From a virus (taxonomy: Duplodnaviria > Heunggongvirae > Uroviricota > Caudoviricetes), in the IMG/VR virus record IMGVR_UViG_3300031993_000024, positions 1-64,000 of that record: 64,000 bases of DNA; one strand, given 5' to 3'. Made by a program: the position numbers and the translations under genes. The notes under the pieces were generated by a model. That model made no database searches. It was not told the DNA's origin and saw only the letters and a list, made by a program, of their open reading frames with translations. Positions 1 to 47,400 of the stretch are shown here, piece by piece. The first letter of the stretch is position 1; each line of letters starts with the position of its first letter.

Positions 1-258
1 ATTAACTTCATCAAGAAAATATTCGATATTATAGTCAGTAACCGGTTCGAATATATTCTCTATAAGGTATTTCACATTTTGGTTCTTGTGCGAATATTGG
101 ATATAAGGTATGTCCAAATACCGCCTGCCGTCCTCTTTATCTGTTATAACAAAAACATAAGTCCTTTCAGAATTGGCGTAATTACTCGGAAATTCAAACC
201 TGCCCTTAACATAGAACAAGCTTTCAAGAAATTCTTTAAATGTCAACAATGCCTTCAT
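1..258 (-). CDS. partial CDS running off the window start; N-terminus MKALLTFKEFLES... (CTS-like leader)
   Basis: Reverse complement of 256-258 is ATG, preceded by AAGGAG. My translation (MKALLTFKEFLESLFYVKGRFEFPSNYANSERTYVFVITDKEDGRRYLDIPYIQYSHKNQNVKYLIENIFEPVTDYNIEYFLDEVN) stays open to position 1. It is absent from the ORF track only because no stop lies inside the window. Confidence 0.45.
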   Translation of the reverse strand, partial: MKALLTFKEFLESLFYVKGRFEFPSNYANSERTYVFVITDKEDGRRYLDIPYIQYSHKNQNVKYLIENIFEPVTDYNIEYFLDEVN

Positions 259-359: not shown

Positions 360-1121
360 TTATATACCTTTTAGGTCACCAGATTGCTTCATAGCAACTG
401 CCATATTGCCTTGCAGCAAGCCTATAAGGTTTATTTTTGAGAATGTACCGCTTACGAATGTCTTCATAATGTCATACATTTTATCTACTGTTTCCTTGTC
501 AGGATTTACCGTCAAGAAGATTGAATCTTCAGGGACAAGGCTTTCAAGTGCAGCTATATTGAAGCCTTCAAGCTCGGAAAGCAAAGACTTGAAGCAAGCG
601 ACATACAGCTCAGTAGGAACACCTGTCTTCCGGCTGCGTACTTTTATTTCAGCGATAAGCCAATCCATATTGTCAGCAGATATATTGTTTTCCCTTGCGA
701 AATCAAGTATCTCTGTCCTGAACTCACTTATATCCGGTACGATTGTTTTCCTGATTATAGAAGGAGTTTTTGGGTCGCTCAACTTGTTAAACAATGAATC
801 AAGGTTTTCATATACATTCTTATTGCCTATGGTCTTCGCAAATTCAAGTTCATCAATGCTGTTGCCTTCATCCAAAAACGGACTTTCCTTTACAATACGG
901 GAAAGCTTTACGACTCTGTTCTGTCCCTTAGAAAATGTACCGTTCCTTCCAAGAAGAATTGTTTCTGCCTCTTCTTCACTTGAAGCAATGCAGGTATCCT
1001 TAAAGTCGCTTATAATATCTCCCTTATTGTCATAAACAACAAAATGACCGGTATACGTTTCTTGCGAATCGAAGTCACTTGACTCTTTGATAAACTGCTT
1101 GTAAGTCTTTAACTTTTCCAT
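360..1121 (-). CDS. hypothetical protein with CTS-like N-terminal leader MEKLKTYKQFIKES
   Basis: 253-aa ORF. Its first 14 residues match the leaders of the 36263-44702 cluster; the body is unrelated to them. Confidence 0.75.
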   Translation of the reverse strand: MEKLKTYKQFIKESSDFDSQETYTGHFVVYDNKGDIISDFKDTCIASSEEEAETILLGRNGTFSKGQNRVVKLSRIVKESPFLDEGNSIDELEFAKTIGNKNVYENLDSLFNKLSDPKTPSIIRKTIVPDISEFRTEILDFARENNISADNMDWLIAEIKVRSRKTGVPTELYVACFKSLLSELEGFNIAALESLVPEDSIFLTVNPDKETVDKMYDIMKTFVSGTFSKINLIGLLQGNMAVAMKQSGDLKGI

Positions 1122-6387: not shown

Positions 6388-8085
6388 ATGGCAGGATTTA
6401 TTAACAGAGGTATAGGTACCGGAATGTACGGAGGCCAAGTGACATTGCGTAAGAAGCTCGCGAATGTCAGGTTTACCGGCAGGGCCTATTCGCCTGACAA
6501 TATGACATCGCTTTCGCAGGTAATATCTGTTCCGCAGAACAGCTGGCACCGCGCTGAAGGCATTGGAGGTTCGCAGCCTGCAAGTTATTCAGTACAGAGG
6601 GAGACTTGTAGGAAATACGCCGCAGAAGACGACATAGACAAAATACTTGATATTGTTTGTGACGAGAGTATTTGTTCGACAGAGCAAGACCGTGATTTCG
6701 CATATATAGAATCAACGGCTGACAAGATTTCTGAAAAAGTGAAGGAGAAACTGCCTGAATACTTTATGAAGTTCAGGTATCTCTACGGCCTTATGAATAC
6801 AGATGATGTCTGGAGGCTTTTCAGGAGATGGATTGTCGATGGCAAGCTTGCATACCGTATAATATATGACGAAAAACAGAAAAACATAATTGACTTTGTA
6901 GAGCTTGACCCAGCGAATGTCGAAAAGATATGTGACAAAGACGGCAAGATACTGTATAAGGTCAGCACTAATGACTTAACGACGGGGAATGTCATAAACC
7001 TTACGTTGACTGAGCAGGAGATTGTTATCATATCTTATTCAGATGAAGATAACGACCTCAGCTATGTTTCAAGGCTTATACGTTCATTCAATACATTGAG
7101 GATTATGGAATCGACGAGAATTATATTCTCTGTCGTCAACTCCTCTTTGAAAATGAATTATGTCGTACCTGTCGGAGCGGTGTCGCCACAAAAGGGAAAG
7201 CAACGACTCGCGCAAGTTGCAGCAGACCAGGCTGAGCAAGTTGACTTCAACTGGTCGACAGGCGAGATAAAGACCAACGGACATCCGATGTTGCCGTTCT
7301 ATAAGCAGATGTTCTTCGCCATGACTGAAGGCAGCAAGCCTGAAGTTTCGGTCTTGAGCAATAACGGTGGACCAGACTTGTCGAATATACAGCCGTTGAC
7401 GTATTTCGCCGATAAGTTCCACGATATAACGAAAGTACCTCTTGCAAGGTTTGACAGACAGGCTGGTGCCCAATATACGATGAACGTCGAAGGAATACAT
7501 AGGGAAGAAATCAGGTTCAGCAGGTTTATAGCAAGGCTTCGGAATATTTACCAGATGCTTTTTATCAAGCCTATCTATATTCAGATTTGTCTTGACAACG
7601 AAATAAAGGATGACATTTCTTTCCTTGCATCTTTGCACCTCGTATACCAGTCAGACTCAGTCTATCTTCAAATTAAGAAGCTTACAATCATACAGCAGAA
7701 TATCAATGCTATTTCAGGTATTCTTAATTCGATACAGGTAACTGACGAACAAGGAAACCAAACACCATATTTCGACCCTGACTTCTTAATGAAGAAATTC
7801 TCGTTGTTCACGCCTGCAGAGCTTGAAGAAAATGAGAGGATTAAGAAGGAGAAAGCTAAGAAACGTAAAGAAGAGGCAGAAAAGGCTGCTACTGAGCAAC
7901 AACCTTCTATGGGAGGTGATATGGGCGGTGGTGGAATGGATATGGGAGGTGGCGATATGGGAGGTGGCGATATGGGAGGCGGCATGGACATGGGCGGCGG
8001 AGGCGATATGGGAGGCAGCATGGACATGAGCGGCGGAGCTCCTGAAACCGGCGGCGCTCCAGAAGGCGGTGAACCTGCAGTTTAA
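6388..8085 (+). CDS. portal protein (T4 gp20-like) with a Gly/Asp/Met-repeat C-terminal tail
   Basis: FRRWIVDGKLAYRII matches T4 gp20 FRRWYVDSRIFFHKII. PLARFDRQAGAQYTMNVEGIHREEIRFSRFIARL matches gp20 [35 protein letters not shown]. Size and synteny with the protease and MCP genes also fit. Confidence 0.85.
   Translation: MAGFINRGIGTGMYGGQVTLRKKLANVRFTGRAYSPDNMTSLSQVISVPQNSWHRAEGIGGSQPASYSVQRETCRKYAAEDDIDKILDIVCDESICSTEQDRDFAYIESTADKISEKVKEKLPEYFMKFRYLYGLMNTDDVWRLFRRWIVDGKLAYRIIYDEKQKNIIDFVELDPANVEKICDKDGKILYKVSTNDLTTGNVINLTLTEQEIVIISYSDEDNDLSYVSRLIRSFNTLRIMESTRIIFSVVNSSLKMNYVVPVGAVSPQKGKQRLAQVAADQAEQVDFNWSTGEIKTNGHPMLPFYKQMFFAMTEGSKPEVSVLSNNGGPDLSNIQPLTYFADKFHDITKVPLARFDRQAGAQYTMNVEGIHREEIRFSRFIARLRNIYQMLFIKPIYIQICLDNEIKDDISFLASLHLVYQSDSVYLQIKKLTIIQQNINAISGILNSIQVTDEQGNQTPYFDPDFLMKKFSLFTPAELEENERIKKEKAKKRKEEAEKAATEQQPSMGGDMGGGGMDMGGGDMGGGDMGGGMDMGGGGDMGGSMDMSGGAPETGGAPEGGEPAV
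7909..8042 (+). repeat. in-frame (GGDMGGG/MDMGGG) low-complexity repeat encoding the portal C-terminal tail
   Basis: MGGDMGGGGMDMGGGDMGGGDMGGGMDMGGGGDMGGSMDMSGG; a locally GC-rich repeated ATGGGAGGTGGCGAT unit. Confidence 0.8.
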
Positions 8086-23774: not shown

Positions 23775-25730
23775 ATGGAAAATAAGAAATATATCGTTGA
23801 GAGTTTAAGTGACGGTGTCTGCTCAAGTTCTGCGGACGGCGGCGATATTGTTCTTGAAGGATGCTTCACGACATTTAACGTGAAGAATCGTAACAACAGG
23901 ATATATGACTCTAAGAATTTCCTTGAGAAGCTTGATGCTCTTACGGAAAAGATTAAGAATCATGACCTTCTCGGTGAGCTTGAACATCCCGCTAATATGA
24001 GGTATGTGTCTTATCAGAACGTTTCTCACATAGTTGAAAGTCTAAGCTATGACCAAAAGACAGATTCTATAAAGGGTCGTATCAAATTATTAAATACTCC
24101 TTCAGGAAGAATCGCGAAGACTCTTATAGAAAATAAAGTGCCTCTTCATATATCTTCAAGGGCTATCGGTACTTTGACACCTGACAATCATGTCGTTGTC
24201 GAAGAACTTATAACTTATGACCTTGTTGCTGAACCAGGTTTTGAGAATGCAGTTCTCCATGCAGTTAACGAAAGCAAGGGCGCGGGTTCTGACGCTCTTA
24301 TAAATGCCGTTAATGCTTTGAGTTCACAGAAGAATGCCAAAATGAAGAGCCGTGTAATACTCGAGTCTTTCGATGGCGCCGATTTGTACGAATTGCAGGA
24401 TGAAGGTCAGAAAGAACCTGAAAGCGGAAATGAAAAACCGAAAATAGACGGCAAGTCTATTATAGGTGAATTCCGTAAGGCGCTCGGTATGAATCCTGGC
24501 AAAATGGACATAACAGTCGACAGCGATATGGGTATCTGTTCTGTTGAATCAAATTCTGATACAGCAATAGTTAATTTCGTAAACGACCATGTTGAGGTTG
24601 AATTCGGAAAGAATGTAACAGGTGAATTCACAGGCATAATCAATAACGCTGTTGAACAATGTCTGAACAATATTGGTGCGAACATTACTGACGGTCCAAC
24701 CGTACAAGACGGAAAGACATATTTCTTTGTAAGTGGAATCAACTTTAATAATTATTATATGGAACAGAAGTTAGGCAACCCTCAAGATGTCGTAACAAGA
24801 CGCGACATGGATAAATACACTAAGTATTTGTCTGAATACTTGAATAAATTGAAAAAAGGTGTCGTTACAAGCGAAGACGTAGAAAAGTATACTGCATATC
24901 TTTCTGAACATCTTGCAGCTATGAATAAAAACGTAGTTACAAGTGATGCTATGGAAAAATATACAGGCTATCTGTCAGAACATCTTAAAAAGATGAATAA
25001 AGACGTTGTCACATCAAAGGATATGGAACGTTATACAGCATATTTGTCTGAACATCTTGAAAAGAACACGGTAACGGCTGAAATGCTTGAAGGATATACA
25101 AAATATCTTTCTGAAAGTTTCGATAAGGTTCTTCAGAAGAACAAGCAGCTTAATGAAAAAATTGAGATGCTTCAGAAGTATACAGAATATATCTCTGAGT
25201 CTCAGACTAAAATCAACAAAAAGCTTAGCGGTAAAATGCAGAGCATAGTTGAAGCTGCTGACAAATCTATAGAAGACATCAAGATGATGGTTGAAGGTAA
25301 ACAGCGCAGTACTGAAGACACTCAACTTCAAAACCTTGTGGAATCTGTAAATTCTATTGCTTCGTCTATTAAGGATACAAACAACAAGATGGAACAACAG
25401 AGTCAAGCCATAAATGAACAGAAATCTGTTACAGAGGCAGAAAAACTTATTCAATTTATGCCTGACTACTTGAAAGAATCTTGGAGCGCTCTTTCTGACA
25501 ACCGTAAGAAAGAAATCCTTAACGAAAGCAAATTGTATATTATCGGCAGTGTAGACGCAGCTGTTCGTTTCTGGAAGACAAGGAATCTTACGGAAAGCGT
25601 AAGCAGTCAAGATACGAAAAAATATCTTTCGGAATCTTTGAGGAATCAGAACAGGAACGTCCGTAATGAAGGAAAAGTACAGGCTTCTGTCGCTGAAGAG
25701 ATAAAAAGACGTTTGAAATACGGATTCTAA
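23775..25730 (+). CDS. prohead core protease (T4 gp21 family) fused to a coiled-coil scaffold-like C-terminal half
   Basis: N-terminal region (EGCFTTFNVKNRNNRIYD...GELEHP...HISSRAIG) fits the gp21/U9 serine protease His and Ser motifs. The C-terminal ~400 aa is helical and repetitive. 651 aa. Confidence 0.7.
   Translation: MENKKYIVESLSDGVCSSSADGGDIVLEGCFTTFNVKNRNNRIYDSKNFLEKLDALTEKIKNHDLLGELEHPANMRYVSYQNVSHIVESLSYDQKTDSIKGRIKLLNTPSGRIAKTLIENKVPLHISSRAIGTLTPDNHVVVEELITYDLVAEPGFENAVLHAVNESKGAGSDALINAVNALSSQKNAKMKSRVILESFDGADLYELQDEGQKEPESGNEKPKIDGKSIIGEFRKALGMNPGKMDITVDSDMGICSVESNSDTAIVNFVNDHVEVEFGKNVTGEFTGIINNAVEQCLNNIGANITDGPTVQDGKTYFFVSGINFNNYYMEQKLGNPQDVVTRRDMDKYTKYLSEYLNKLKKGVVTSEDVEKYTAYLSEHLAAMNKNVVTSDAMEKYTGYLSEHLKKMNKDVVTSKDMERYTAYLSEHLEKNTVTAEMLEGYTKYLSESFDKVLQKNKQLNEKIEMLQKYTEYISESQTKINKKLSGKMQSIVEAADKSIEDIKMMVEGKQRSTEDTQLQNLVESVNSIASSIKDTNNKMEQQSQAINEQKSVTEAEKLIQFMPDYLKESWSALSDNRKKEILNESKLYIIGSVDAAVRFWKTRNLTESVSSQDTKKYLSESLRNQNRNVRNEGKVQASVAEEIKRRLKYGF
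24804..25125 (+). repeat. about 4.5 in-frame tandem repeats (~72 nt, 24 aa: KYTxYLSEHLxxMNKxVVTSxDME) inside the scaffold region
   Basis: KYTKYLSEYLNKLKKGVVTSEDVE, then KYTAYLSEHLAAMNKNVVTSDAME, KYTGYLSEHLKKMNKDVVTSKDME, RYTAYLSEHLEKNTVTAEMLEG, YTKYLSESF. Confidence 0.8.
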
Positions 25731-25838: not shown

Positions 25839-27536
25839 TTGATAGAAATGGAAATCAATAGTGTAAAAGCCCTTCAGGATTGGGGCAAGGTGATTGAAGA
25901 ATCAACCGGAATAAAAGACCCTGTAAAAGTTGCTTGGATGTCTAAAGTTTGCGCTATCCAAGATAACGACGATAAAATGAAACCAATTTTGGAATCTGCT
26001 TTCTGGGGACCAACATTGAATCCGTCAATGACTATGCAAGGCGCTGGCGCAATTCAATTCCCTAATGGTGGTGAAAATGGTTTCTCTGGTGTACGTAACG
26101 GTTCAGCAGATGCAATCGCTTCAAGTGTAGCTATCGCAATGCAAGCAGCTGCTCAAACAATCGCTCTTGACTTGTTGGCAGTTGTACCGGTATCAGCTCC
26201 TCAAGGTCAATATCGTTTCTACGATACTGTTTACGAAGGTGGCCGTATCAATGGTGACTTGCGTACTTACGACAAAGATGGTAATGTAAGCTACAAATTT
26301 ACAAATGCAGTTGCTGACCCATTGCTTGTTGAAGTTGTTGAAGCTTCTGAAGAAGGTGCAGAATTATTGAAGAAAGTTATCGAAGCTGAAGGTTCTGAAG
26401 CTCCTGTTATTGAACAAGGTGATTTCAAATTGACATTCGTTGAACTTGGCTTCATCTCTGGTAAACCAATCTTCTTAGTTGAAAGAAAAGACGCTAAACC
26501 GGGTGAATTCAATGCACGTCGTTTCAATGGCGCTCAAACTCTTGCAGAAGCATTCGAAGGTATCTTCGTATTCGGTCAAGTAAATACGAAAGAAAATCAC
26601 ATCACTGCATTCACAGGTCGTGACTTCTATGAAAACTCAGTAGAAAAAACTGGTTCAAAGAATCCTTACGACAACAATTTCGGTGTAGAACCATTCGAAC
26701 GTGAAGAAGGAGAAGCTACTACAGTTAACTTCTTGGGTGCTAAACGTACTTCTTTCGATTACAAAGTAAGAACTTACCAAGTTGGTTTCTCAGCTACTTG
26801 GGAACAAATCGAAGATGCACAGGCTGACGGTCAAGACATCATCGCTCAAATCGAAGGTGATGCTCTTAACGAATTGTCTCAATCTACTAACAAGTACATC
26901 TTAACTAAGATGTGGGAATTGGCTGGCAAACATGCTGACCGTCTTGAAGACAGAGGCGAAGTATTGAACACTTACTTCAAATCAGTTGCAGATGCTGACG
27001 AAGACATTCCTGCTGCTTACAAAGATTACAAACAAGTAGTTGTTGACAACGGTGGTGAAACTTCGTTGACACTTCAAGCACGTGTAATGCGTAAATTGTT
27101 GTATGCTGCTAACATCATCTCTCACGATTCTCGTTTGTCAGGTGGTAAATTCTTCGCTATCGGTTCTACTCAGTTCGTAACTGCAGTACAATCTGTAGCA
27201 GGTCTTACTCAAATCACTTTGCCTAACAACGTTCAATCTGTAGCTGATGCTCCTAATCCAATTGGACAGGTAAGCAACATTACATTGTACCAAGACCCGA
27301 ACCTTCCTGTAAACTATACAGGCGTTTTGGTTGGTCGTATCACTAAACCTAATGACCCAGGTTTGATTTTCTTACCATACATTATGGCTAAGAAAGTAAC
27401 TACGACAGCAACTGCGACATTCGCATACGCTGGTGCAATGAAATCTCGTTTCGCACTTCTTGCTGCTGGTCACTATCCAGATTTGCAATACTTGCGTTTC
27501 GATATGGCATTTAGCCCATCAATCGAACTTGTGTAA
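25839..27536 (+). CDS. major capsid protein (T4 gp23-like)
   Basis: AAQTIALDLLAVVPVSAPQGQYRFYDTVYEG aligns to gp23 AIPNLIAFDICGVQPMNSPTGQVFALRAVYG. GGENGFSGVRNGSADAI matches gp23* N-terminal GGDHGYNATNIAAGQTSGA. An I-L-E|S site at residue 52 is consistent with propeptide removal. Confidence 0.9.
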   Translation: MIEMEINSVKALQDWGKVIEESTGIKDPVKVAWMSKVCAIQDNDDKMKPILESAFWGPTLNPSMTMQGAGAIQFPNGGENGFSGVRNGSADAIASSVAIAMQAAAQTIALDLLAVVPVSAPQGQYRFYDTVYEGGRINGDLRTYDKDGNVSYKFTNAVADPLLVEVVEASEEGAELLKKVIEAEGSEAPVIEQGDFKLTFVELGFISGKPIFLVERKDAKPGEFNARRFNGAQTLAEAFEGIFVFGQVNTKENHITAFTGRDFYENSVEKTGSKNPYDNNFGVEPFEREEGEATTVNFLGAKRTSFDYKVRTYQVGFSATWEQIEDAQADGQDIIAQIEGDALNELSQSTNKYILTKMWELAGKHADRLEDRGEVLNTYFKSVADADEDIPAAYKDYKQVVVDNGGETSLTLQARVMRKLLYAANIISHDSRLSGGKFFAIGSTQFVTAVQSVAGLTQITLPNNVQSVADAPNPIGQVSNITLYQDPNLPVNYTGVLVGRITKPNDPGLIFLPYIMAKKVTTTATATFAYAGAMKSRFALLAAGHYPDLQYLRFDMAFSPSIELV

Positions 27537-33383: not shown

Positions 33384-33434
33384 ATATAAAGATATACACA
33401 ATAATTGTTAATTCATTAAATACCAAGATTTTAA

Positions 33435-36208: not shown

Positions 36209-36235
36209 ACTGATAAAACTATAAATTGTAGATAT

Positions 36236-36249
36236 TGTTTTTTATATAA
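36236..36249 (+). promoter_or_regulatory. TTGTTTTTTATATA motif (copy 4), part of a 50-bp cassette shared with 37225-37274
   Basis: GTAGATATTGTTTTTTATATAAAAGCTTAAAAGATATGGAAAAATTAAAG; near-identical at 37225. Confidence 0.4.
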
Positions 36250-36262
36250 AAGCTTAAAAGAT

Positions 36263-37111
36263 ATGGAAAAATTAAAGACATTCAAAAGCTTCATCAAAGA
36301 AAGTATTGATTTGAATGCTTTCAGAAAAAATAATGGAAAGTACTATCCTGAAGATAGAGATGAATTGAAATTGCTTATGGAAGCTCTTATAGAGGAGAGA
36401 GGTTTTGAAGGTGACTTTAATGATATTGACACATCAAGGATTACTGATATGAGCCATTTATTTGCATTTGCCAGAAGTTTTAATGGTGATATATCACAAT
36501 GGGATACAAGTAATGTGACGAACATGCGAAGAATGTTCAGTAGTGCAGAAAAGTTCAATCAATCTATTGAAAACTGGGAGGTTTCAAATGTAAAAGATAT
36601 GGGAATGATGTTTATGTCTGCAAAAAGTTTCAATCAACCTATTGGAAACTGGAATGTATCAAATGTAGAGGATATGGGAAGTATGTTTAGTGCTGCAGAA
36701 AAGTTCAACCAATCTATTGAAAACTGGGATGTCTCAAATGTCAAAATTATGAGAAGTATGTTTAGTGCTGCAAAAAGCTTCAATCAGCCAATTGGAAACT
36801 GGAATATTTCAAATGCCTATTATATGCCTTTTATGTTCCATAGAGCAGAGAAGTTCAATCAACCAATTGAAAACTGGGATGTCTCAAATGTAAAAAATAT
36901 GAGAAGCATGTTTAGTTTTGCAAAATGTTTTAATCAGCCAATTGGAAACTGGGATGTTTCAAATGTAGAAGATATGGAAGCTATGTTTCATTATACTGAA
37001 TCTTTCAACCAAGATATTTCAAATTGGAATGTTTCGAAAGAAGTAATATGCAGGGATATGTTCGTTAATTGTCCAATCAAGCAGGAATATAAACCTGATA
37101 TAAAACAATAA
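36263..37111 (+). CDS. CTS-like leader (MEKLKTFKSFIKES) plus DUF285/BspA-like repeat protein
   Basis: Leader, then ~9 repeats of FNQxIxNWxVSNVxxMxxMF, matching the DUF285 mycoplasma-type repeat. Confidence 0.8.
   Translation: MEKLKTFKSFIKESIDLNAFRKNNGKYYPEDRDELKLLMEALIEERGFEGDFNDIDTSRITDMSHLFAFARSFNGDISQWDTSNVTNMRRMFSSAEKFNQSIENWEVSNVKDMGMMFMSAKSFNQPIGNWNVSNVEDMGSMFSAAEKFNQSIENWDVSNVKIMRSMFSAAKSFNQPIGNWNISNAYYMPFMFHRAEKFNQPIENWDVSNVKNMRSMFSFAKCFNQPIGNWDVSNVEDMEAMFHYTESFNQDISNWNVSKEVICRDMFVNCPIKQEYKPDIKQ
36470..37060 (+). repeat. in-frame ~75-78-nt tandem repeats encoding DUF285-type repeats
   Basis: FNQSIENWEVSNVKDMGMMFMSAKS, then FNQPIGNWNVSNVEDMGSMFSAAEK, and so on. Confidence 0.75.
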
Positions 37112-37232
37112 AGTAAGACAATATGAAAAGAGAACGTCAGAGTGAAATTCTTTGACACTTTCTTTTTATCGAGTAGCTTCGCATAGAATCTGAATATAAA
37201 TAACCGGGAAAACCATAAATAGATTGTGGATA

Positions 37233-37245
37233 TTGTTTTTATATA
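37233..37245 (+). promoter_or_regulatory. TTGTTTTTATATA motif (copy 5; T5 variant)
   Basis: Part of the duplicated 50-bp cassette. Confidence 0.4.
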
Positions 37246-37259
37246 AAAGCTTAAAAGAT

Positions 37260-37802
37260 ATGGAAAAATTAAAGTCTTATAAACAGTTAATTGCAGAATC
37301 AGATGATGCCGGAAGATTCTTGAAAGCTGATACAAGTGTAATAAGCGATTCCATTTATGAGTCTTTCTTTGAAAAGCCATTTCAAGGGGAAGAAAGAACG
37401 CTTGAAGATTTGTATGCTGTATCTAAGACATCCGACAAGTATAAAGGTCTTAGATTAAAAGAAATATCCAAGATTGAAACTGATATACAAATAATTCAGG
37501 CTATAGATAAATGGGTTGAGAAGAAAAACGTTCGTGATTATACTTTCCTGAAGAGAATTGGGCAAGGTTCGATGATAAACACGAAACTATATTCATCTAA
37601 AAATACGCATTGGGGCGGCATGGCGACAGTCGACCTTATGAATGGTATCGCGAAACATGTCATTTACGATTACTCCGAGACCATAGAAGGAGAAGCAATC
37701 GAAGGCTTCATGAAGATAGAGTATAATGATGATATGCTTGCGATATACCAGCAGTATGACAACCATACTGTAGGCAAGTATCATATCTATGTAAAACTGT
37801 AG
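37260..37802 (+). CDS. hypothetical protein with CTS-like leader MEKLKSYKQLIAES
   Basis: The track ORF 37224 starts at a non-ATG codon. The ATG at 37260 sits inside the conserved cassette. Confidence 0.7.
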   Translation: MEKLKSYKQLIAESDDAGRFLKADTSVISDSIYESFFEKPFQGEERTLEDLYAVSKTSDKYKGLRLKEISKIETDIQIIQAIDKWVEKKNVRDYTFLKRIGQGSMINTKLYSSKNTHWGGMATVDLMNGIAKHVIYDYSETIEGEAIEGFMKIEYNDDMLAIYQQYDNHTVGKYHIYVKL

Positions 37803-37807
37803 GCGAC

Positions 37808-38278
37808 ATGAGTAAGGGATTGCTGACATATAGCAAGTTCTTAAAAGAGTCCGTAAGTCTTGACGACTTGACGAACCTCATCATTGAATGGGAACCTAAA
37901 TGGAAGGTATCTGTTGAGGAATATGATGAGAAGATGCGTAAGCTGAATAATACTGAATACTTGTTTGACCTTTCAAAATATACAGTAGACACAGATAAGG
38001 CTCGTTTAATTATTTGGATAGGTTCAAGAAAATCTGATGGCGTTATAGTCATAGACGCAAGGGCAAGGCTTAAAGATGAAAGCTTTTATAGTTCTGAACT
38101 GCCTGGTTCGAGGACGAATGCCGAAAGAGAGGTCATGAAAAAAATGATGAATGACAATACCTTACTTACAGCGATAACCGAATTTATTAACAAAAAGTAT
38201 CATACGAGGATTGCTGCTCTTGCCGTTAAGAACCGTATAACGATGTCAAACTGGCTTGGTGCCGAAACTGAAATATAA
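37808..38278 (+). CDS. hypothetical protein with a degenerate CTS-like leader MSKGLLTYSKFLKES
   Basis: 156-aa ORF. Confidence 0.65.
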   Translation: MSKGLLTYSKFLKESVSLDDLTNLIIEWEPKWKVSVEEYDEKMRKLNNTEYLFDLSKYTVDTDKARLIIWIGSRKSDGVIVIDARARLKDESFYSSELPGSRTNAEREVMKKMMNDNTLLTAITEFINKKYHTRIAALAVKNRITMSNWLGAETEI

Positions 38279-38279
38279 T

Positions 38280-38753
38280 ATGGAAAAATTAAAGACTTTC
38301 AAAAGTTTTATCAATGAAGCTATTTCTGGCTGGGATAACGAAATCAATGATTATGTTGTCAAAAAAGATAGTAGAAAACGCGAACGAGGATATATATTCG
38401 TACCGAATGGTGAAGAATTATACAAGCGCGAATTTAGAGCACCTCAAATAGCTTGGGGTTTCGAAGACTACCACGTATCTTCTTGGGATAAAGTCAGACT
38501 GAGAAAAGAAGGTTACAGCGACGAACAGATTGAGCTTATAGATAAATATCTCGGTCTATGGACTTCATATCGAAGCACTTATGCTGTCGTAAGTAAGACA
38601 TCGTTAAGACAATCTGAGAAACTGACAGGAATCGCTACTCCAGACAAAGATGTCTATGTAACATACGAGGTAGGTGCTGTCGGAATATATCAGAAACGTT
38701 ACTATGACTTAGAAAAATTTGCGACCTTTGTAAAGAATCATTGTAAAAAATAA
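38280..38753 (+). CDS. hypothetical protein with CTS-like leader MEKLKTFKSFINEA
   Basis: The track ORF starts at TTG 38256, overlapping the previous gene. The ATG at 38280 begins the conserved leader. Confidence 0.65.
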   Translation: MEKLKTFKSFINEAISGWDNEINDYVVKKDSRKRERGYIFVPNGEELYKREFRAPQIAWGFEDYHVSSWDKVRLRKEGYSDEQIELIDKYLGLWTSYRSTYAVVSKTSLRQSEKLTGIATPDKDVYVTYEVGAVGIYQKRYYDLEKFATFVKNHCKK

Positions 38754-38798
38754 AAGAACAGAATTAAAACATTTTTATCTAAAAACTTGAGAAAGATT

Positions 38799-40706
38799 AT
38801 GGAACACTTAAAGACATTCAAACAATTTTATGAATCAAGGGAAGAGGACCTTGAACTGTACAATAAGGCGAAAGACGCATACTATAATGGCAACCCCATT
38901 ATGGGCGACGCTGAATTTGATGAACTCGAAAGAAAGCTTGGTCTTGAAAATCAGGGCTATATAGGTACACATCATTCTGATAATTATACCGTAAAACATC
39001 CGATAAAAATGGGAAGCCTTTCGAAAATACAGATAAAAGAAGGTTCAGACGGTCAAACCCATTTTGACTCATATATCGATACCCTTAACAAGTATTTCCA
39101 AAATGTTCCGGACGATGGAATCATTGAGGTAACTCCAAAATTCGATGGATGTTCTTTTGAGGTTGTGTTCGATGACGAAGGAAATGTTGAAGGAATATCG
39201 ACAAGAGGCGATGGTGAATACGGTACGGATGTAAGCCACTGGCTGAGTCCTTATGTAGACGAAATACCTTACAAGGAATTCCTGCAGAAAGGCAAGAAGC
39301 TCGTGGTAAGGGGAGAAGCTCTTATAAGCTTTAATGACTTTAACGCAGGCTATCAGGATAAATTCGCGAATACAAGGGCGTTTGTTGCTGGCATGTTCGG
39401 TCAGAAATGGGACGGAAAACAGGAACAGCTTGATATAAGGAAAGATTTGTCAATAGTTGTGTATGACTTCAGGCTTGTATCTCCGTCAGGCTCATATCAA
39501 TGGGTTGACTATAATACGGTTCCTGGCTATGACGTATGCGCATACAATGTGCTTACCTTTAAGAAATCAGAACTCAGTCCTATGGAATTCGCGAGGATTT
39601 ACGAAGAAATGGAGAAAGTTCGTAAGGATTACAAATTCCCTCTTGACGGTTTCGTGTTGAAACCAGAAGTGAAATACCGCAAGACGGAAGATGTTCAGCG
39701 TCCGAGCGACTGCGTCGCAATCAAATACAAACCAAGTATCCTCGAGACAGAAATCACGGAGATAGAATGGAATGTTGGAAAGACAGGAGAACTTTTCCCG
39801 AAGGCTGTGTTCAAGACAATAAAGATGGACGGAAAGAACATCAACAAGGCGTCATTGCATAACTACGGATATGTTAAGGACAATAACGTCGGAGTTGGTT
39901 CCATCATTAAGATTTCGCTTGCCGGCGATATAATTCCTTTCGTGTATGAAATCGTAAGAGACGGAGGCGACAATATGGCTCCTACCGAGAATGTGACCGT
40001 TAAAGGACCTCATCTTATGATTGACTTGTCTGCTGAAGAAAAAGTTGTCATAAAGGTAATAGCAGGCGCTGAGGCGATAAACATCAGAAATTTCAAAGAG
40101 GCGACGATACGTAAGATTATGCCTGAGTTCTTTACAAGCGAGGATGTAAAAATCGAGAATGTCCTTGACTTTATGAAAGATGAATCAATCGCTTTTATGA
40201 AGGAACGTTTCGGAACAGGGACATCGATAATGAATATCGTAAACGCTCTTACTGAAAGACGTAAGACTTTGACGCTTAATGAAATCATACTTGCCCTGCA
40301 GTTCCGTCTGTGCGGTAAGGTCGCTGCCGATGTCTGTGCCAAGTTTATCAAGGGCGACAAGTCAAATCATCTCATAGGCGTGCCTGGTGAAGTCAAGAGA
40401 TGGCTTCTTGATGAGAATTCTCAGGAATACCAGACTATTATGGGGTATGCGAATTTGTTCAAAGTTAATATGGCTCCGGAAGCGGCCGCTGCGTCGACGG
40501 CGATACCTGTGATTATGACAGGAAGTCCGAAAGAATTCGGATATGTTACCAAGGCAGCTTTCCTTGCCGCACATCCTGAATATATAGAGACATCTGACTG
40601 GAAGCAATGTAAAATCCTGTTTACGGACGATATGTCTTCGACATCCGGAAAAATGAAGAAAGCTGCCGCTCTTGGAGTTGAGGTGAAAACATACGGGGAA
40701 GCATAA
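38799..40706 (+). CDS. ligA: NAD-dependent DNA ligase (LigA-like domains Ia, NTase, OB, HhH, BRCT) preceded by CTS-like leader MEHLKTFKQFYES
   Basis: YYNGNPIMGDAEFDEL fits domain Ia. KMGSLSKI fits LigA PMLSLDNAF. TPKFDGCSF is the KxDG motif; STRGDGEYGTDVS fits ATRGDGTTGEDIT; FANTRAFVAGMFGQ fits motif IV NPRNAAAGSLRQ. LAGDIIPFVYEIV marks the OB end. HhH-like and BRCT-like regions (AIPVIMTGS...LGVEV) are present. Confidence 0.85.
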   Translation: MEHLKTFKQFYESREEDLELYNKAKDAYYNGNPIMGDAEFDELERKLGLENQGYIGTHHSDNYTVKHPIKMGSLSKIQIKEGSDGQTHFDSYIDTLNKYFQNVPDDGIIEVTPKFDGCSFEVVFDDEGNVEGISTRGDGEYGTDVSHWLSPYVDEIPYKEFLQKGKKLVVRGEALISFNDFNAGYQDKFANTRAFVAGMFGQKWDGKQEQLDIRKDLSIVVYDFRLVSPSGSYQWVDYNTVPGYDVCAYNVLTFKKSELSPMEFARIYEEMEKVRKDYKFPLDGFVLKPEVKYRKTEDVQRPSDCVAIKYKPSILETEITEIEWNVGKTGELFPKAVFKTIKMDGKNINKASLHNYGYVKDNNVGVGSIIKISLAGDIIPFVYEIVRDGGDNMAPTENVTVKGPHLMIDLSAEEKVVIKVIAGAEAINIRNFKEATIRKIMPEFFTSEDVKIENVLDFMKDESIAFMKERFGTGTSIMNIVNALTERRKTLTLNEIILALQFRLCGKVAADVCAKFIKGDKSNHLIGVPGEVKRWLLDENSQEYQTIMGYANLFKVNMAPEAAAASTAIPVIMTGSPKEFGYVTKAAFLAAHPEYIETSDWKQCKILFTDDMSSTSGKMKKAAALGVEVKTYGEA

Positions 40707-40724
40707 CATAAAATTTATAAGGAC

Positions 40725-41420
40725 ATGAAAAAATTAAAGACATATAATCAGTTCCTTAAAGAAGGAAAAGGCATACGTAAAGAATATGACAGCAGCCTTG
40801 AAAATATGATGGATGAATACGGAAGTGATTCCTATGGTTCTGTCATAACAAAAGAGGTCGAGGAACTGCAGACAATGCTGAAGGACAAAAATCTTTTGGA
40901 GCCTGTCGATAAAGTTGTGTCTGTAATGTTATACCCTGAACAAGATTGGCATCCGATATATGCGATGATACGTCTTGAAAACGGCTTGCAGTACGTAACG
41001 ACAATTATAAATGTAGCCGATAAAAGCAAACTAAGACTGATGTCTGACGAGATGTATAAGATATTGCTTGAATGGCTTCAGAATGTCATAGATGAAGACA
41101 AGAAGAAAAAATCAAGTATGAAGTCAATGCCTGAAATCAAGGATTTGCTGCCTGAATATCTGAATATCGTCAGTAGATTTGTTGAAATGTTTAATATAGG
41201 CAGAGCCAAGTATGAAGCTAAGATATATAAGACAGACTCGATTCTTATTACATATAACGGAAGATATAATGGGGTTCTCATATTCTCCAAAACTGAGTAT
41301 GCCTATAATATCGAAGTACATGCTGTTACTGGCGGATTTTATGATACTGATTATTTGTATGATGAATCCAGCAAAGTTATTAAAGATGCCGTTAATTACA
41401 TTTTAAAACAACAACTATGA
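40725..41420 (+). CDS. hypothetical protein with CTS-like leader MKKLKTYNQFLKEG
   Basis: 231-aa ORF. Confidence 0.7.
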   Translation: MKKLKTYNQFLKEGKGIRKEYDSSLENMMDEYGSDSYGSVITKEVEELQTMLKDKNLLEPVDKVVSVMLYPEQDWHPIYAMIRLENGLQYVTTIINVADKSKLRLMSDEMYKILLEWLQNVIDEDKKKKSSMKSMPEIKDLLPEYLNIVSRFVEMFNIGRAKYEAKIYKTDSILITYNGRYNGVLIFSKTEYAYNIEVHAVTGGFYDTDYLYDESSKVIKDAVNYILKQQL

Positions 41421-42136
41421 TTATGAAAATAAATGACAGAAATATGAAAGATATTCTCGGCGAGCTTAGTAAGGTCGTATCTGATGCGATAGGTCTTGAG
41501 AATATCGTTGGTTACTATACGAAGAAAACATACAGCTTCAAGTCAGATGTCCTGACGATTACTTTGTCTTATCACGAAGACCCTCAACGGGAATATTATG
41601 ATTTGAAGCAAATCAAGTCTGACGCGTATAATGCCGCTCAGAGTATATTTGGAGTATTTGCTCTGCAAGATTATAAAGAGCAAGCTGATGTTACGAAAGA
41701 TGAGATGTACGTCAATATCATCTTCAAGTTTACTGTCGACGAACTTGAAAAGGTGAAAGTCGTATATGACAGGCTTTTTACCGAGGGTAGCTCAAAGCTA
41801 CTTACTTACAGCCAGTTTATCAATGAGAGTTCTAAGAATGGTGTAGAGCTTGGTAACTATGAATTCGCGTATAGATGCGATGAAGAGGAGAATGCCGACG
41901 AGCTTATGGAAATAACTCATTATGACGAATTTGCGAATAATGACTACAGCATACAGGATGATTATTTCGGTTCTACAGTTAAAATCGTCAATACCGATGA
42001 GATGCTTCCACATTTATTCGGCAACAAGCCTGAAGAGTCAGAGATAGAATACTGTGCTTTGAATACCGTTTTGAACATAGCATTCATACTTGATAAATCT
42101 GGCTATCATTGGATTTATGAACTACTCACAAACTAA
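41417..42136 (+). CDS. hypothetical protein (no leader); its 3' end overlaps the tnpB stop by 15 nt
   Basis: 239-aa ORF; the last codons may be IS-derived. Confidence 0.55.
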   Translation: MIMKINDRNMKDILGELSKVVSDAIGLENIVGYYTKKTYSFKSDVLTITLSYHEDPQREYYDLKQIKSDAYNAAQSIFGVFALQDYKEQADVTKDEMYVNIIFKFTVDELEKVKVVYDRLFTEGSSKLLTYSQFINESSKNGVELGNYEFAYRCDEEENADELMEITHYDEFANNDYSIQDDYFGSTVKIVNTDEMLPHLFGNKPEESEIEYCALNTVLNIAFILDKSGYHWIYELLTN

Positions 42137-43318
42137 AGATTTGTGGGCTTCAGGCTTCGCAGACAATTGCTTGCAAGCAAGTCTTACATCGTCTCCACCT
42201 GTGTAATCGACAGTCCCTGCCGATAGAGTTGTTAATCCTTCTCTAAGGATATTGATAGCAGCATTTAAGTCCCTATTGTGGTGTTTACCACATTTAGGAC
42301 AAGTCCATTCTCGTACACACAAGTCTTTGATAGATTGATTGATATATCCACAGTCACTACAAGTCTGTGAGCTTGGAAAATATCTGTTAATCTTCACTAA
42401 AGTCTTGTCTTCCCTTTCACACTTGTATTCAAGATAGTTTACGAATGTTCCCCAACTGACATCAGCAATATGCTTTGCAAGTTTATGGTTCTTAATCATT
42501 CCTTTTACGTTAAGGTTCTCACAACAGATTATGTCATAGTTTCTGACAAGTTCTGTTGATACCTTGTGTAATACATCATTTCTTGAATTTGAAATTTTCT
42601 TATGAATCTTGACAACTTTTCTTCTTTGGTTTTCAAAAGAACGGCTGTCTTTTTGCTTACGAGAAAGATGCCTCTGTGCTTTACTTAATTTTCTTTCATA
42701 TTTCTTTGTATATCTATGATTTTTGTAAACTTTTCCATCTGACGTAATAACAAAGTCTTTTAATCCTAAATCAATTCCGACAGATTTATTAGATTTTTGT
42801 ATTGGTTCATATAACTGTTCTGTAAGAATAGCAACATAATATTTTCCATCGCAATCTTTAGATACTGTCATAGAACGTACATTCCCTGATATTTCTTGAT
42901 GTTTCTTTATTTTTATATTAGACTTGAATTTTGGTAATGATATAGAATTGCCAACAACAGAACAAAATTGTGGCACTACAAAAGAGTTTCTGTCTTTCCT
43001 TGATTTGAATCTTGGAAACTTCGCATTTCCTCTAAAGAAGTTAAGATATGCAGATTCAAGATGTCTCAAACTATGTTGTAAGGTTTGACTGTTAATCTCA
43101 TTTAACCAGACAAATTCTTCATGCTTCTTTAATAGAGTTAGTTTCTTAGCTTGGTCATAGTAATTATCAGACTTTTGTGTAGCTTTATATTGCTCCATAC
43201 GTTCGTTGAGAAAATAATTATAGACGAAGCGAGTGCATCCAAAATACTTACCTAACAACTCTACTTGTTCCGTATTTGGATACATTCTAAACTTATATGT
43301 CTTATAAATCGTTTTCAC
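42122..43318 (-). CDS. tnpB: TnpB (IS605 OrfB-family RNA-guided nuclease)
   Basis: HTH-like N-terminus, RuvC-I SVGIDLGLKDFV, zinc finger CSDCG...CPKCG, and RuvC-III NRDLNAAINIL. 398 aa. Confidence 0.95.
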   Translation of the reverse strand: MKTIYKTYKFRMYPNTEQVELLGKYFGCTRFVYNYFLNERMEQYKATQKSDNYYDQAKKLTLLKKHEEFVWLNEINSQTLQHSLRHLESAYLNFFRGNAKFPRFKSRKDRNSFVVPQFCSVVGNSISLPKFKSNIKIKKHQEISGNVRSMTVSKDCDGKYYVAILTEQLYEPIQKSNKSVGIDLGLKDFVITSDGKVYKNHRYTKKYERKLSKAQRHLSRKQKDSRSFENQRRKVVKIHKKISNSRNDVLHKVSTELVRNYDIICCENLNVKGMIKNHKLAKHIADVSWGTFVNYLEYKCEREDKTLVKINRYFPSSQTCSDCGYINQSIKDLCVREWTCPKCGKHHNRDLNAAINILREGLTTLSAGTVDYTGGDDVRLACKQLSAKPEAHKSLVCE

Positions 43319-43469
43319 AGTAACTATAACTTTCTATATTTATAAATTTACAAAAAACTTTTATTTTTGTAAAATTATTCTAAATAATTATACTTCAAAA
43401 AACAGGCACAAATATTACTTGAGATGTCATTTAATATTTGTTTGTAAATACAGAAAACAATTATTACAA

Positions 43470-43726
43470 TACAGACCGGATATAGTCGTAAAACAATTGT
43501 TTCAAAAATTTTACAAACTTCTGATTTCGATATTGATGTTATGGAGATAGACAAAGGCAATATACATCTTCTTATATCATATCCACCAAATATTTCAGTC
43601 ACTTCGATTGTAAGAAAACTCAAACAAGATAGTGTCCATTATCTGTGTTTGAATTATTACAACTTTCTTAAAAAAGAATTTTGGAAAGAACATACATTTT
43701 GGAGTGATGGATACTTTGTTCTATAG
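43470..43726 (+). pseudogene. tnpA: TnpA (IS200 Y1 transposase) remnant lacking its N-terminal ~60 aa
   Basis: FDIDVMEIDKGNIHLLISYPPNISVTSIVRKLKQDSVHYL...FWSDGYFV matches the TnpA C-terminal half. The HUH motif is degenerate (NIH); the catalytic Tyr is present. The frame opens only at 43448. Confidence 0.7.
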
Positions 43727-43768
43727 GTAAAGCAAATCAAGATACTATTAGAAAATATATAAAGAATC

Positions 43769-43911
43769 TGGGAAAAAGAAGTGTGTATGGAAGTAGATGT
43801 CGACATAAAAAATCTGAAAACTAATGAAGGTACGGTAATGAGGTATTACGCATAATTTTTTTAGGAATTTTCAAAAAAAATAAATATATAAGAAAAACTT
43901 ATAATAACAAA
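43769..43911 (+). repeat. 142-bp direct repeat of 23634-23775 (gp25-like 3' end plus downstream promoter region), ~96% identical
   Basis: Within the 84-nt coding part there are 4 differences, all synonymous third positions. In the non-coding part there is a single 1-nt indel. The copy's reading frame is closed 3 codons upstream. Confidence 0.85.
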
Positions 43912-43985
43912 GGTTAGTACGATTCATTCCAAAGGCTAAAGACCTTAGGATTTTCTTGCTAAAAATTATATAAAACTGATTACTT

Positions 43986-44702
43986 ATGGGAAAGTTAATG
44001 ACATATAAGCAGTTCATGGAGAATAAAACCATGAAACAAGTTAACGAAGGAGCAGGTGCAGGATATACCATAGAAGGCATTATACGAAATATCAATCTTG
44101 GAGAAAATGCGAAATTCAAGAAAGTAAATGATGATACTTTCATTATAAATGGTGACATCACCTGCAATGTCGAAGTCACTAAGGCTGCATCTTACGAATA
44201 TGGCGGAGATGATAAGATATTTAACGAATATAATGCTGCCGCCAAAATTTCGAATCTGGAAATCCAGGTATATGATATGGACAAGGGCAGTAAAGAAGAG
44301 ATAAAAGAAGACCTTAAACAGGCTGAGTTCAAATTCAAATGCCTTTACGGTGCAGGTTGGGTACATAGCAAGTTTGGAGGCGACTTAAAACTTAGCGATG
44401 TCGATACTAACGACTGGTCTAATTCGCAAATCATAAACGGCGAACTGCAGATAGAAGATGAGAAGCTTTGTAATTTTGTCGATAGAGTGGTACGTGGTGA
44501 TAATACATACACCGCATATACGATAAGATGTAACGGAGACCTTATTGAACAGGAATTCAAGACTGAGAAAGAAGCAATCGAATATGCTAAGAAGAACCTT
44601 GAACCTGGAGAGAATATCTGTAAGATACTTATGGATACCGATTATGAGGACATAGAAGGTGAAATAATCAGCAGAGATTCTAATATAGTGTACGAATTCT
44701 AA
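43986..44702 (+). CDS. hypothetical protein with CTS-like leader MGKLMTYKQFMENK
   Basis: 238-aa ORF preceded by ATTATATAAAA. Confidence 0.7.
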   Translation: MGKLMTYKQFMENKTMKQVNEGAGAGYTIEGIIRNINLGENAKFKKVNDDTFIINGDITCNVEVTKAASYEYGGDDKIFNEYNAAAKISNLEIQVYDMDKGSKEEIKEDLKQAEFKFKCLYGAGWVHSKFGGDLKLSDVDTNDWSNSQIINGELQIEDEKLCNFVDRVVRGDNTYTAYTIRCNGDLIEQEFKTEKEAIEYAKKNLEPGENICKILMDTDYEDIEGEIISRDSNIVYEF

Positions 44703-44727
44703 ATTCCATACTGTATATGAACGGAAG

Positions 44728-44760
44728 GCGTCAGGATTAAATTCTTGACGCTTTCTTTTT
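44728..44760 (+). terminator. rho-independent terminator
   Basis: GGCGTCAGG-attaaatt-CTTGACGC followed by TTTCTTTTT. Confidence 0.55.
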
Positions 44761-44765
44761 CTAAC

Positions 44766-44780
44766 GTTGTTTTTTATATA
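44766..44780 (+). promoter_or_regulatory. GTTGTTTTTTATATA motif (copy 6)
   Basis: Exact motif 21 nt upstream of the ATG at 44801. Confidence 0.4.
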
Positions 44781-44800
44781 AAACTAAAATAGAATATTTA

Positions 44801-46818: not shown

Positions 46819-47400
46819 ATGTTACCTACTTATCAATTACAGCAACTTATCAAGAAAGCGACTGAAAACAGAGAAAATTACGCAGTAAACGACCCTACTC
46901 GTTATATGGAGCTTGTCTCACAATGTGCGTTCCGTTATGCCAACAAGTATCCAAGAATTCCATTTGAAGATATTTTCGGATATGGCATGATAGGACTTAC
47001 TAATGCCTGCAAGCGTTTTGATGGAGACGAATTCGCTCGTCTTGCTTATTACAAGACATACATTGAAGGAGAAATTCGTCACGGTATCACAACTGAGCTG
47101 AACTATGTTCACCAGGCTGTAAACAATATGCAGAAAGAAGAAACGACGATTATCTCTATGACCAGCGGCGGAATTGATAAGGAATACGAACGTGATGACA
47201 GAATGATTACGGTCGAGAGATACTTGTCAGGCAACAACAGCCTGAAAATCGAGGAAATCGCGATTCTTAAACGCGAGCTCAAGTTTACTGATACCCTGAA
47301 AAGTGACATCTGCCGTGAATTCAGGCTTGACAGCAAAGGTTATCAAGTATGCCTTGACAATGCAATCAAAACTATGCGCAAGGAACTTGTTTACGCCTGA
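46819..47400 (+). CDS. sigma-70-family (ECF-sized) sigma factor
   Basis: Region 2: GYGMIGLTNACKRFD...ARLAYYKTYIEGEIRHGI. Region 4 HTH: IAILKRELKFTDTLKSDICREFRLDSKGYQVCLDNAIKTMRKEL. 193 aa. Confidence 0.7.
   Translation: MLPTYQLQQLIKKATENRENYAVNDPTRYMELVSQCAFRYANKYPRIPFEDIFGYGMIGLTNACKRFDGDEFARLAYYKTYIEGEIRHGITTELNYVHQAVNNMQKEETTIISMTSGGIDKEYERDDRMITVERYLSGNNSLKIEEIAILKRELKFTDTLKSDICREFRLDSKGYQVCLDNAIKTMRKELVYA

Follow-up and report, generated by a model that had tools for sequence, protein, structure and literature searches.

Proteins that phages inject are normally found only through virion proteomics of cultured phages. In phage T4, the internal proteins (IPs) IPI, IPII and IPIII and Alt, an enzyme of the ADP-ribosyltransferase class that is packaged and injected, carry the same core peptide, the capsid-targeting sequence (CTS), at the N-terminus of otherwise unrelated proteins and are processed by the prohead protease gp21. 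Read from the T4 genome (NC_000866), IPII and IPIII begin with MKTYQEFIAE/A and IPI with MKTFKEFTSTTTPVSTITE/A (MKTFKEFTST...ITE/A); the slash marks the position of the cut, which is predicted in the other sequences given below. Ten residues are sufficient for head targeting in T4, and amber-suppressor mutagenesis of the IPIII CTS assigned targeting mainly to residues 4 and 7 and processing to residues 8 and 10; it has been suggested that the CTS evolved in T4-like phages as a means of packaging a variety of proteins (PMC9026906). According to passages of PMC3012670 (citing Repoila 1994), the internal proteins of T-even phages are highly diverse defence proteins that share only the CTS. Here we describe a family of N-terminal leader peptides in a 64,000-nucleotide stretch of phage DNA (positions 1 to 64,000 of IMG/VR record IMGVR_UViG_3300031993_000024, Caudoviricetes; referred to as the window), and we propose, with a probability of about 0.7, that this shared N-terminus is a T4-type CTS propeptide of packaged and injected proteins.

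Ten leader copies of 12-14 residues were found in the window, following the pattern M-x-K-L-[KL]-[TS]-[FY]-x-x-F-[ILM]-(x)-E (Table 1). Nine stand directly after a start Met and had all been quoted in the initial annotation of this DNA, each correctly placed. The tenth, overlooked at that stage, was picked up by a six-frame regular expression at position 41792, inside the open reading frame (ORF) 41417-42136. On the plus strand, six tagged genes follow one another (36263-41420); the seven consecutive genes originally described are reduced to these six, as ORF 41417-42136 and a TnpB element come before the seventh, gene 43986 (genes are named by the coordinate of their start). When a leader profile was compared with every six-frame segment of the window, the ten copies scored 15.8-25.5 bits and the next best match 5.6; as the profile was built from these same ten copies and is circular for them, the scores show a gap to the background, with no continuum, and not independent significance. 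A generic expression, [TS][FYW]xx[FLWY][ILMVF]xE, required to begin no later than residue nine of an ORF, returned six N-terminal cases as against 0.25 expected from its internal frequency. All-against-all BLASTP confined the likeness of the leader proteins to their first ~15 residues, and the earlier description of the bodies as unrelated is borne out, the sole exception being a weak match of 23% between genes 1121 and 37260. The operon at the window start extends past position 1, where MSELKIYSKWLEG and a degenerate MGNLKTFSEYRRDY were read (L039); no leader copy was found in the 10 kb past the window end.

Table 1. Leader genes, head genes and promoter-like motifs in the window. A slash marks the predicted cut; bits are scores against the leader profile.
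Feature	Position	Strand	Leader	Remainder of product, or evidence	Bits
Leader gene 1	36263..37111	+	MEKLKTFKSFIKE/S	DUF285/BspA-type repeat protein, 282 aa; Pfam DUF285, E 1.5e-97	21.0
Leader gene 2	37260..37802	+	MEKLKSYKQLIAE/S	167-aa body	20.4
Leader gene 3	37808..38278	+	MSKGLLTYSKFLKE/S	142-aa body	17.8
Leader gene 4	38280..38753	+	MEKLKTFKSFINE/A	144-aa body; isoelectric point (pI) 8.8	22.1
Leader gene 5	38799..40706	+	MEHLKTFKQFYE/S	complete NAD+-dependent DNA ligase (LigA type)	
Leader gene 6	40725..41420	+	MKKLKTYNQFLKE/G	218-aa body	21.4
ORF with internal leader	41417..42136	+	SSKLLTYSQFINE/S (SSKLLTYSQFINES; context TEGSSKLLTYSQFINESSKNG)	leader at 41792-41830	23.1
Leader gene 7	43986..44702	+	MGKLMTYKQFME/N	226-aa acidic body	20.8
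Leader gene 8	360..1121	-	MEKLKTYKQFIKE/S	240-aa body; best consensus match	25.5
Leader gene 9, 5' part, running off the window	1..258	-	MKALLTFKEFLE/S		
ORF of 639 aa heading the minus-strand leader operon	1126..3045	-	GHLMTFNEYRMFVEG/S (LMTFNEYRMFVEG)	degenerate internal stretch near residue 491	2.5
Prohead protease (gp21 / S77-S80) with scaffold-like tail	23775..25730	+		651 aa; protease residues 1-200, tail ~450 aa	
Major capsid protein, gp23-like	25848..27536	+		Pfam Gp23, 2.7e-10	
T4-type portal (gp20 family)	6388..8085	+		Pfam Portal_T4, E 8.7e-61	
Sigma-70 region-2-like small protein	46819..47400	+		Pfam Sigma70_r2 3.2e-4, below gathering score; PHROG 351, 1.3e-8	
ATAAATT	36221..36227	+		42 nucleotides upstream of gene 36263	
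ATAAATA	37215..37221	+		45 nucleotides upstream of gene 37260; second copy TATAAATA at 37195-37202	
ATAAATA	286-280	-		28 nucleotides upstream of leader gene 258	
ATAAATA	3077-3071	-		32 nucleotides upstream of operon-head ORF 1126-3045	

The window consensus, M-E-K-L-K-T-[FY]-K-[QS]-F-[IL]-K-E/S (full form with the MEKL extension, MEKLKTYKQFIKES), holds a core, K-T-[FY]-K-[QSE]-F-[IL]-x-E/S, that is essentially identical to the T4 peptide and is preceded by a lineage-specific extension of 3-4 residues (M-E-K-L-). The positions mapped by mutagenesis in T4 are kept: the equivalent of position 4 is aromatic in all ten copies, that of position 7 is Phe in nine, that of position 8 is Ile or Leu in eight (seven with this residue at P3 of the Glu), and the Glu corresponding to residue 10 is present throughout. 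These matches, the head machinery encoded in the window and the tagging of an ADP-ribosyltransferase in relatives (see below) support the CTS-like character given to the leader in the initial annotation. As in T4, the core is N-terminal on unrelated proteins, and the cut, predicted for the window, falls after Glu with a hydrophobic residue at P3. The window differs from T4 in the leader extension, in the number of tagged genes (at least 10-12 in about 75 kb, as against three IPs plus Alt), in cargo that is almost all acidic and includes a full LigA, in one or two copies internal to an ORF, and in the fusion of the protease to the scaffold.

The head machinery is present, as had been noted from the start: a protease of the S77/gp21 family with its catalytic His and Ser, a gp23-like capsid protein and a T4-type portal, all belonging to the T4 families, although the capsid protein is linked to T4 gp23 by profile methods only. 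A tail sheath gene is found in the window as well. Protease 23775 matches Pfam S77 (3.8e-12), Pfam S80 (3.5e-7) and the PHROG head maturation protease family (1e-39). Aligned to T4 gp21 (5JBL), it conserves a His (GELEHP) and a Ser (HISSRA), which sit at the T4 catalytic residues His85 and Ser140; the deposited 5JBL chain reads Ala at these two positions. The motif [FYW][LIM]xE occurs nine times in the fusion protein, as against 0.66 expected from shuffles, and eight of these sites lie in the tail. The ninth, KKYIVE/S (residues 4-10), ends at residue 9 of the protease and parallels the LIE-9 site of T4 gp21 (PMC9026906). Between residues ~340 and 470, the tail consists of four to five tandem units of ~24 aa, VVTSxDMEKYTxYLSEHLxKMNK, each holding (K)YTxYLSE[HS]. 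The leaders end in the same four-residue pattern, [FY][IL]xE (F-I-K-E, F-L-K-E), as the sites of the tail. In the capsid protein, candidate maturation sites are VIEE/S (~residue 20) and PILE/S (~residue 52), the first of which has a homologous site, IIE/GSTGI, in the 462-kb uncultured phage LR756500.1. LR756500.1 and Tenacibaculum phage PTm1 have the same protease-scaffold fusion; the PTm1 annotation names it prohead core scaffolding protein and protease. An ORF of 410 aa without family match (16926-18158, plus strand) contains four [FY][IL]xE motifs as against 0.64 expected, one of them at the C-terminus (VYISE), and may be a further prohead-core or processed head protein.

Taken together, the following course can be proposed. 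The tagged genes would be transcribed together with the head genes, and the amphipathic leader would dock each protein onto the prohead core, built from the scaffold-like tail of the protease-scaffold fusion, before the capsid shell closes round the core. Leader ends and scaffold repeats alike would then be cut by the gp21-family serine protease, at the Glu that closes [FY]-[IL]-x-E; small fragments would exit the head, whereas the folded cargo, with predicted mature masses of 14-70 kDa, would stay with the DNA and enter the host at infection. Docking, cleavage, head retention, ejection and a role of the cargo in the host are steps that we infer from sequence, and an anti-defence role of the cargo is speculation.

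Regarding transcription, ATAAATA is found 22-45 nucleotides (nt) upstream of the portal, sheath, protease and several other structural genes, and ATAAAT[AT] lies 18-70 nt upstream of 20 of the 89 genes, mostly in the structural half of the window (sites on the plus strand are, for example, 6356, 20741, 23745 and 29600). The T4 late promoter is TATAAATA. Leader genes on both strands are preceded by the motif (Table 1); genes 37808 to 41417 lie close together, none with its own motif, which suggests that they would be read through from the signal of gene 37260. The sigma-70 region-2-like protein could be a gp55-like late sigma factor for ATAAATA. If it does match the motif, T4-type late transcription would extend to this lineage.

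Only two of the ten tagged bodies, the DUF285 protein and LigA, matched a family in Pfam and PHROG scans; the bodies of genes 37260 and 37808, for example, have no match in either. The ligase (Pfam PF01653 and PF03120; PHROG 3869, E 7e-83, residues 19-633) has the adenylation motif KxDG (KFDG), an oligonucleotide/oligosaccharide-binding (OB) fold and domain Ia (AYYNG...DAEFD). Cleavage after the leader Glu would give it the mature start SREEDLELYNK, and SSDFDSQETYTGH in the case of gene 1121. The latter is an ORFan: its homologs among 5.8 billion proteins are confined to its own 99%-identity cluster. Gene 40725 has three homologs among 1.84 billion representatives, with alignments beginning at about residue 20, and in its AlphaFold2 (AF2) model (predicted local distance difference test, pLDDT, 81.5) leader residues 1-15 score below 50 and lie outside the confident fold; fold searches with this model gave no informative structural neighbour. 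The single-sequence AF2 model of the product of gene 43986 was unusable (pLDDT 42). For this gene, a gene caller had taken an internal Met, giving MTYKQFMEN. Gene 258, which runs off the window, is 151 aa at full length as read in L039.

The internal leader of ORF 41417-42136 occupies residues ~126-138, between the two halves of a product that has no N-terminal leader. The start of this 239-aa ORF overlaps the stop of the preceding gene (ATGA), and the ORF is also present in an independent assembly (L011). A blastp match of its N-terminal half to the C-terminal domain of 40725 (30% identity, E 0.16) was too weak to be used. Internal leaders were also seen in unrelated metagenome contigs, L056/L099 (~residue 123) and L106 (~residue 171), with EERKLKTYKQFINE/KKKPG. 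Such internal copies may represent one tag serving two flanking domains, or fused genes. The degenerate stretch in ORF 1126-3045 is, at its score, not significant alone.

The window belongs to a 238,631-bp metagenomic contig (ENA ERZ27257203 k141_1795869), parts of which are also found in JGI 3300028887 and Logan SRR9008933; about 95 kb of the contig were covered here. The G+C (guanine plus cytosine) content of the window is 37.7%. A megablast search of positions 36000-45000 against 50,697 phage records gave no match. By tblastn with the capsid protein, the best relative is LR756500.1 (31% identity), followed by Lak megaphages of Prevotella and jumbo phages of Flavobacterium, Tenacibaculum, Chryseobacterium and Sphingomonas. 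The host is likely to belong to the Bacteroidota, the phylum infected by most, but not all, of the nearest sequenced relatives. Genes for gp32, gp13 and a gp5-like hub were also seen in relatives of this lineage.

Of 120 ligase homologs, most start directly at domain Ia (MDKRELYD..AYYNG), and a leader-like extension ending in x-x-E is confined to the closest ligase clade, P0001-P0007 (7/120; 54-100% identity), with the forms MDTMPSFKEFINE/S, MKHILSRVDFIKE/A, MMNYKEFISE/D, MEHILSRADFLAE/S, …FDEFKVNE/S and …RSGYLNE/S. In the relative L053, an ADP-ribosyltransferase (PF03496) starting with MKHILSHDDYINE/A is encoded beside the ligase with MKHILSRVDFIKE/A; in L050, MIQNFNDYNKNKITFKQV is common to the ligase and the following gene. 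The ADP-ribosyltransferase of L051 begins with MIKTFAEYIAE/R, almost the T4 sequence, and a WYL_2 protein of the same relative with MLTKFEHFKEYILE/C. Tagged enzymes of the class of T4 Alt are thus encoded in this group. The complete LR756500.1 has six N-terminal leaders of the MKYIQTYKDFL[IL]E kind, as against 0.34 expected, on a leucine-rich repeat (LRR) protein, a DUF2201 metallopeptidase/VWA protein, a DUF5661 protein, a polynucleotide kinase (PNK)-type 3'-phosphatase and two unknowns. Each relative has its own leader variant, common to its unrelated genes. What the compared genomes show is a portable tag, grafted onto different protein families and uniform within a genome. Such uniformity is expected if the tags co-evolve with one common receptor, the prohead core, and gene conversion would give it too.

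An IMG/VR scan for DNA encoding KT[FY]KQFIKE found 27 loci. In all of them the motif follows a Met without a gap (MKTFKQFIKE…) and leads into unrelated bodies; two sampled loci carry T4-type capsid or sheath genes. A scan of the same database for ATG-MEKLKT[FY]K gave eight loci, all of which were discarded as chance matches without the rest of the leader. Among 52 metagenome loci matching KLKT[FY]KxFIxE, about five are N-terminal leader genes and about three are internal copies; most of the 52 come from contigs of low G+C content and represent an unrelated repeat family, of no use for tracing cassette turnover. In the sampled parts of the relatives, no cargo of the window was found except the ligase and a partial DUF285 match; such differences fit rapid turnover of the cargo, the sampling being partial. 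PTm1 ORF-069 (56832-57146; L043-L047), of 104 aa, starts with MKITFEELLAE/K, a sequence similar to the T4 CTS, and may be a solitary CTS protein of this cultured phage.

A secretion signal was considered as an explanation of the leader and rejected: the leader is charged and amphipathic and lacks a hydrophobic core, and cellular DUF285 homologs have hydrophobic N-termini instead. Among 120 DUF285 homologs, a leader-like start was seen in one and a hydrophobic, signal-like N-terminus in at least 50, which indicates that the phage copy bears the tag where cellular homologs bear an export signal.

Several points weigh against the CTS reading. The phage is uncultured and known here from its sequence alone. 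The motif and its position are what the late-promoter reading draws on. The leader end [IL]-x-E was found in seven of the ten copies, and to this extent the initial statement that every leader ends in I/L-x-E stands; the remaining three (38799, FYE/S; 43986, FME/N; 258, FLE/S) are one residue shorter, which places Phe at P3. The likeness between leader and scaffold is restricted to the four-residue motif, the leader profile having no match to the tail repeats. With the exception of the product of gene 38280, the cargo is acidic (pI 4.4-5.9); T4 IPII and IPIII are basic. The cultured phage PTm1 shares the protease-scaffold fusion but lacks a leader family, which shows that heads of this type can do without the tag. 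Finally, the tagged ligase, of replicative type, is normally a cytoplasmic, non-virion enzyme, like the tagged PNK phosphatase of LR756500.1, and its tagging could mean that the leader has a role beyond capsid loading. Leaders on non-virion proteins of relatives had been named in the initial annotation as an observation that would speak against packaging; the ligase and PNK tags leave some room for such a broader role.

The alternative that survives best, though we consider it unlikely, holds that the tagged proteins are docked core or assembly accessory factors that are degraded or expelled at maturation, or structural filler, and not injected effectors. T4 gp67 and gp68 are degraded or expelled at maturation. 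It would agree with the acidity of nearly all of the cargo, with the cleavage-type motif that leader ends and scaffold repeats have in common and with the further [FY][IL]xE sites in the bodies of 1121 (residue 82) and 258 (two sites). On the other hand, intact enzymes without an obvious assembly role are tagged (LigA here; ADP-ribosyltransferase and PNK phosphatase in relatives), the cargo is ORFan-like and varies between relatives, unlike conserved assembly factors, and CTS-tagged proteins of T4, foreign ones included, are delivered into the host (PMC9026906).

Slightly less probable again is a tag for the phage protease or another hub outside the capsid, used, for instance, to switch enzymes on or off by late proteolysis or to bring them to a site of replication or assembly, with the proteins acting in the producing cell. 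That ligase and PNK 3'-phosphatase are classic cytoplasmic replication and repair enzymes, and that the ligase tag is kept across a clade of 54-76% identity, would suit this explanation, and a passage of PMC12991175 describes prohead proteases as able to cleave non-capsid substrates. It has to be kept in mind, however, that the peptide matches the T4 CTS at nearly every residue, that ten residues suffice for head targeting in T4 (PMC9026906), that the tagged genes flank the head module and have its promoter-like motif, and that the ADP-ribosyltransferase tagged in relatives has in T4 a packaged counterpart, Alt.

The initial annotation had also stated that conservation extends to the DNA. Mean pairwise identity is indeed 63% in the first 30 nt, compared with 35% in the 40 nt upstream and 30% in nt 45-105, but this conservation is modest and is explained by codon constraint. 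Invariant residues use different synonymous codons (Leu TTA/TTG/CTA; Thr ACA/ACT; Phe TTT/TTC, 5:4; Glu GAA/GAG), as does the P1' Ser (AGT, TCA or TCC). The varied codons and the upstream identity at background level argue for selection on the peptide and against an RNA or DNA element or a recent duplication. Genes 36263 and 37260 alone share a near-identical segment of ~40 nt, from the ATAAAT motif to the ATG (36222-36262 and 37219-37259), tgtRgatattgttttt(t)atataaaagcttaaaagat, which is found in no other leader gene and could be a local duplication or a shared element of the 5' untranslated region. Recent tandem duplication as the origin of the tagged genes was rejected, the bodies being unrelated in BLASTP and the leader codons differing synonymously. 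A 5' cassette acting at the nucleic-acid level (translation enhancer, RNA element, or recombination or gene-conversion site) and spread by recent duplication is therefore highly improbable: the segment shared by these two genes and the homogenised leader variants within genomes, possible via gene conversion, would fit it, but the codon usage and upstream background just described do not, one copy is internal to an ORF, and the same peptide is encoded by different DNA in T4 and in 27 IMG/VR contigs.

The surroundings of the leader genes hold further genes of note. Between the head genes and the plus-strand cluster (31758-36208, plus strand), the precomputed Pfam gene table labels three genes as ATP-grasp TupA-like, TOD1/MUCI70 glycosyltransferase-like and NAD-dependent epimerase/dehydratase; these sugar- or ligase-type products could modify virion proteins or DNA. 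An SbcD-like nuclease (PHROG 100; 44801-45862, plus strand) lies near the tagged ligase, and an RtcB RNA-splicing ligase (Pfam label) at 57920-59230 (plus strand); neither has a leader. With the tagged PNK phosphatase of LR756500.1 taken into account, these genes suggest a sizeable repertoire for nucleic-acid repair. The gene that breaks the leader cluster is of the TnpB/IS605 family (42122-43318, minus strand), with HTH_OrfB_IS605, OrfB_IS605 and Cas12f1-like TNB domains. Two short ORFs beside it (43419-43726, plus strand; MRCHLIFVCKYRKQLL and HLLISYPPNISVTSIVRKLKQDS) resemble, by eye, a frameshifted IS200-type TnpA. In the relative L051, TnpB adjoins the ligase too.

To return to the proposed CTS, the polymorphic IP loci of T-even phages resemble the window in having diverse, fast-changing cargo behind a conserved CTS, which passages of PMC3012670 read as injected counter-defence. 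Variable cargo of this kind is, in the light of those passages, already established for T-even phages, and the novelty claimed in the initial annotation was overstated. The T-even loci are those of close T4 relatives of enterobacteria, whereas the window belongs to a huge-phage lineage with at most 31% capsid identity to sequenced relatives, in which the tag variant differs between genomes and is uniform within each. The phages phiKZ and SPN3US are likewise large-genome myoviruses with many head-internal proteins that are cut after Glu by an S77/S80 protease and ejected, but most of their propeptides exceed 100 residues, and they have no short shared tag (PMC5694885). The window leaders, nearly identical and at most 14 residues long, are not of this long-propeptide type. 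The phiKZ/SPN3US cleavage motif, S/A/G-x-E, also differs from the [FY][IL]xE of the window leaders. For phage P1, sections of PMC9024508 and PMC12810830 describe the Dar system, in which several unrelated proteins, enzymes included, are loaded into the head and injected against host defences. The literature searched contained no paper reporting leaders of the CTS type in huge phages akin to this one, Lak-like phages included. The CTS mechanism (T4) and the diversity of the cargo behind it (T-evens) are already known; the lineage, the size of the set, the leader extension, the internal copies and the cargo classes, above all the DNA ligase, are new.

If the leader is a true CTS, few parts of the T4-type head programme would be as well conserved as the targeting peptide, which is almost unchanged here although the capsid protein of the lineage can hardly be recognised; the peptide would also offer a cheap sequence-based listing of candidate injected proteins in uncultured huge phages. 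Since injected proteins act before phage genes are expressed, they are prime candidates for counter-defence or host takeover. The tag nominates unexpected cargo: the DNA ligase and, in relatives, PNK phosphatase, ADP-ribosyltransferase, LRR proteins and a metallopeptidase. The T4 CTS has already been used to load foreign proteins into T4 capsids, and natural variants could widen this toolkit. More tentatively, this phage and its relatives might pack and inject working repair enzymes, LigA here and the PNK-type 3'-phosphatase in the 462-kb relative, alongside ADP-ribosyltransferases and LRR proteins, with the CTS core as a sequence-only marker of the injectome. Were this true, a pre-packed repair kit could seal nicks and breaks made by host nucleases or join genome ends before phage expression, and the near-invariant CTS core would list the injected proteome of uncultured phages of the T4 superfamily, from marine T4-likes to megaphages.

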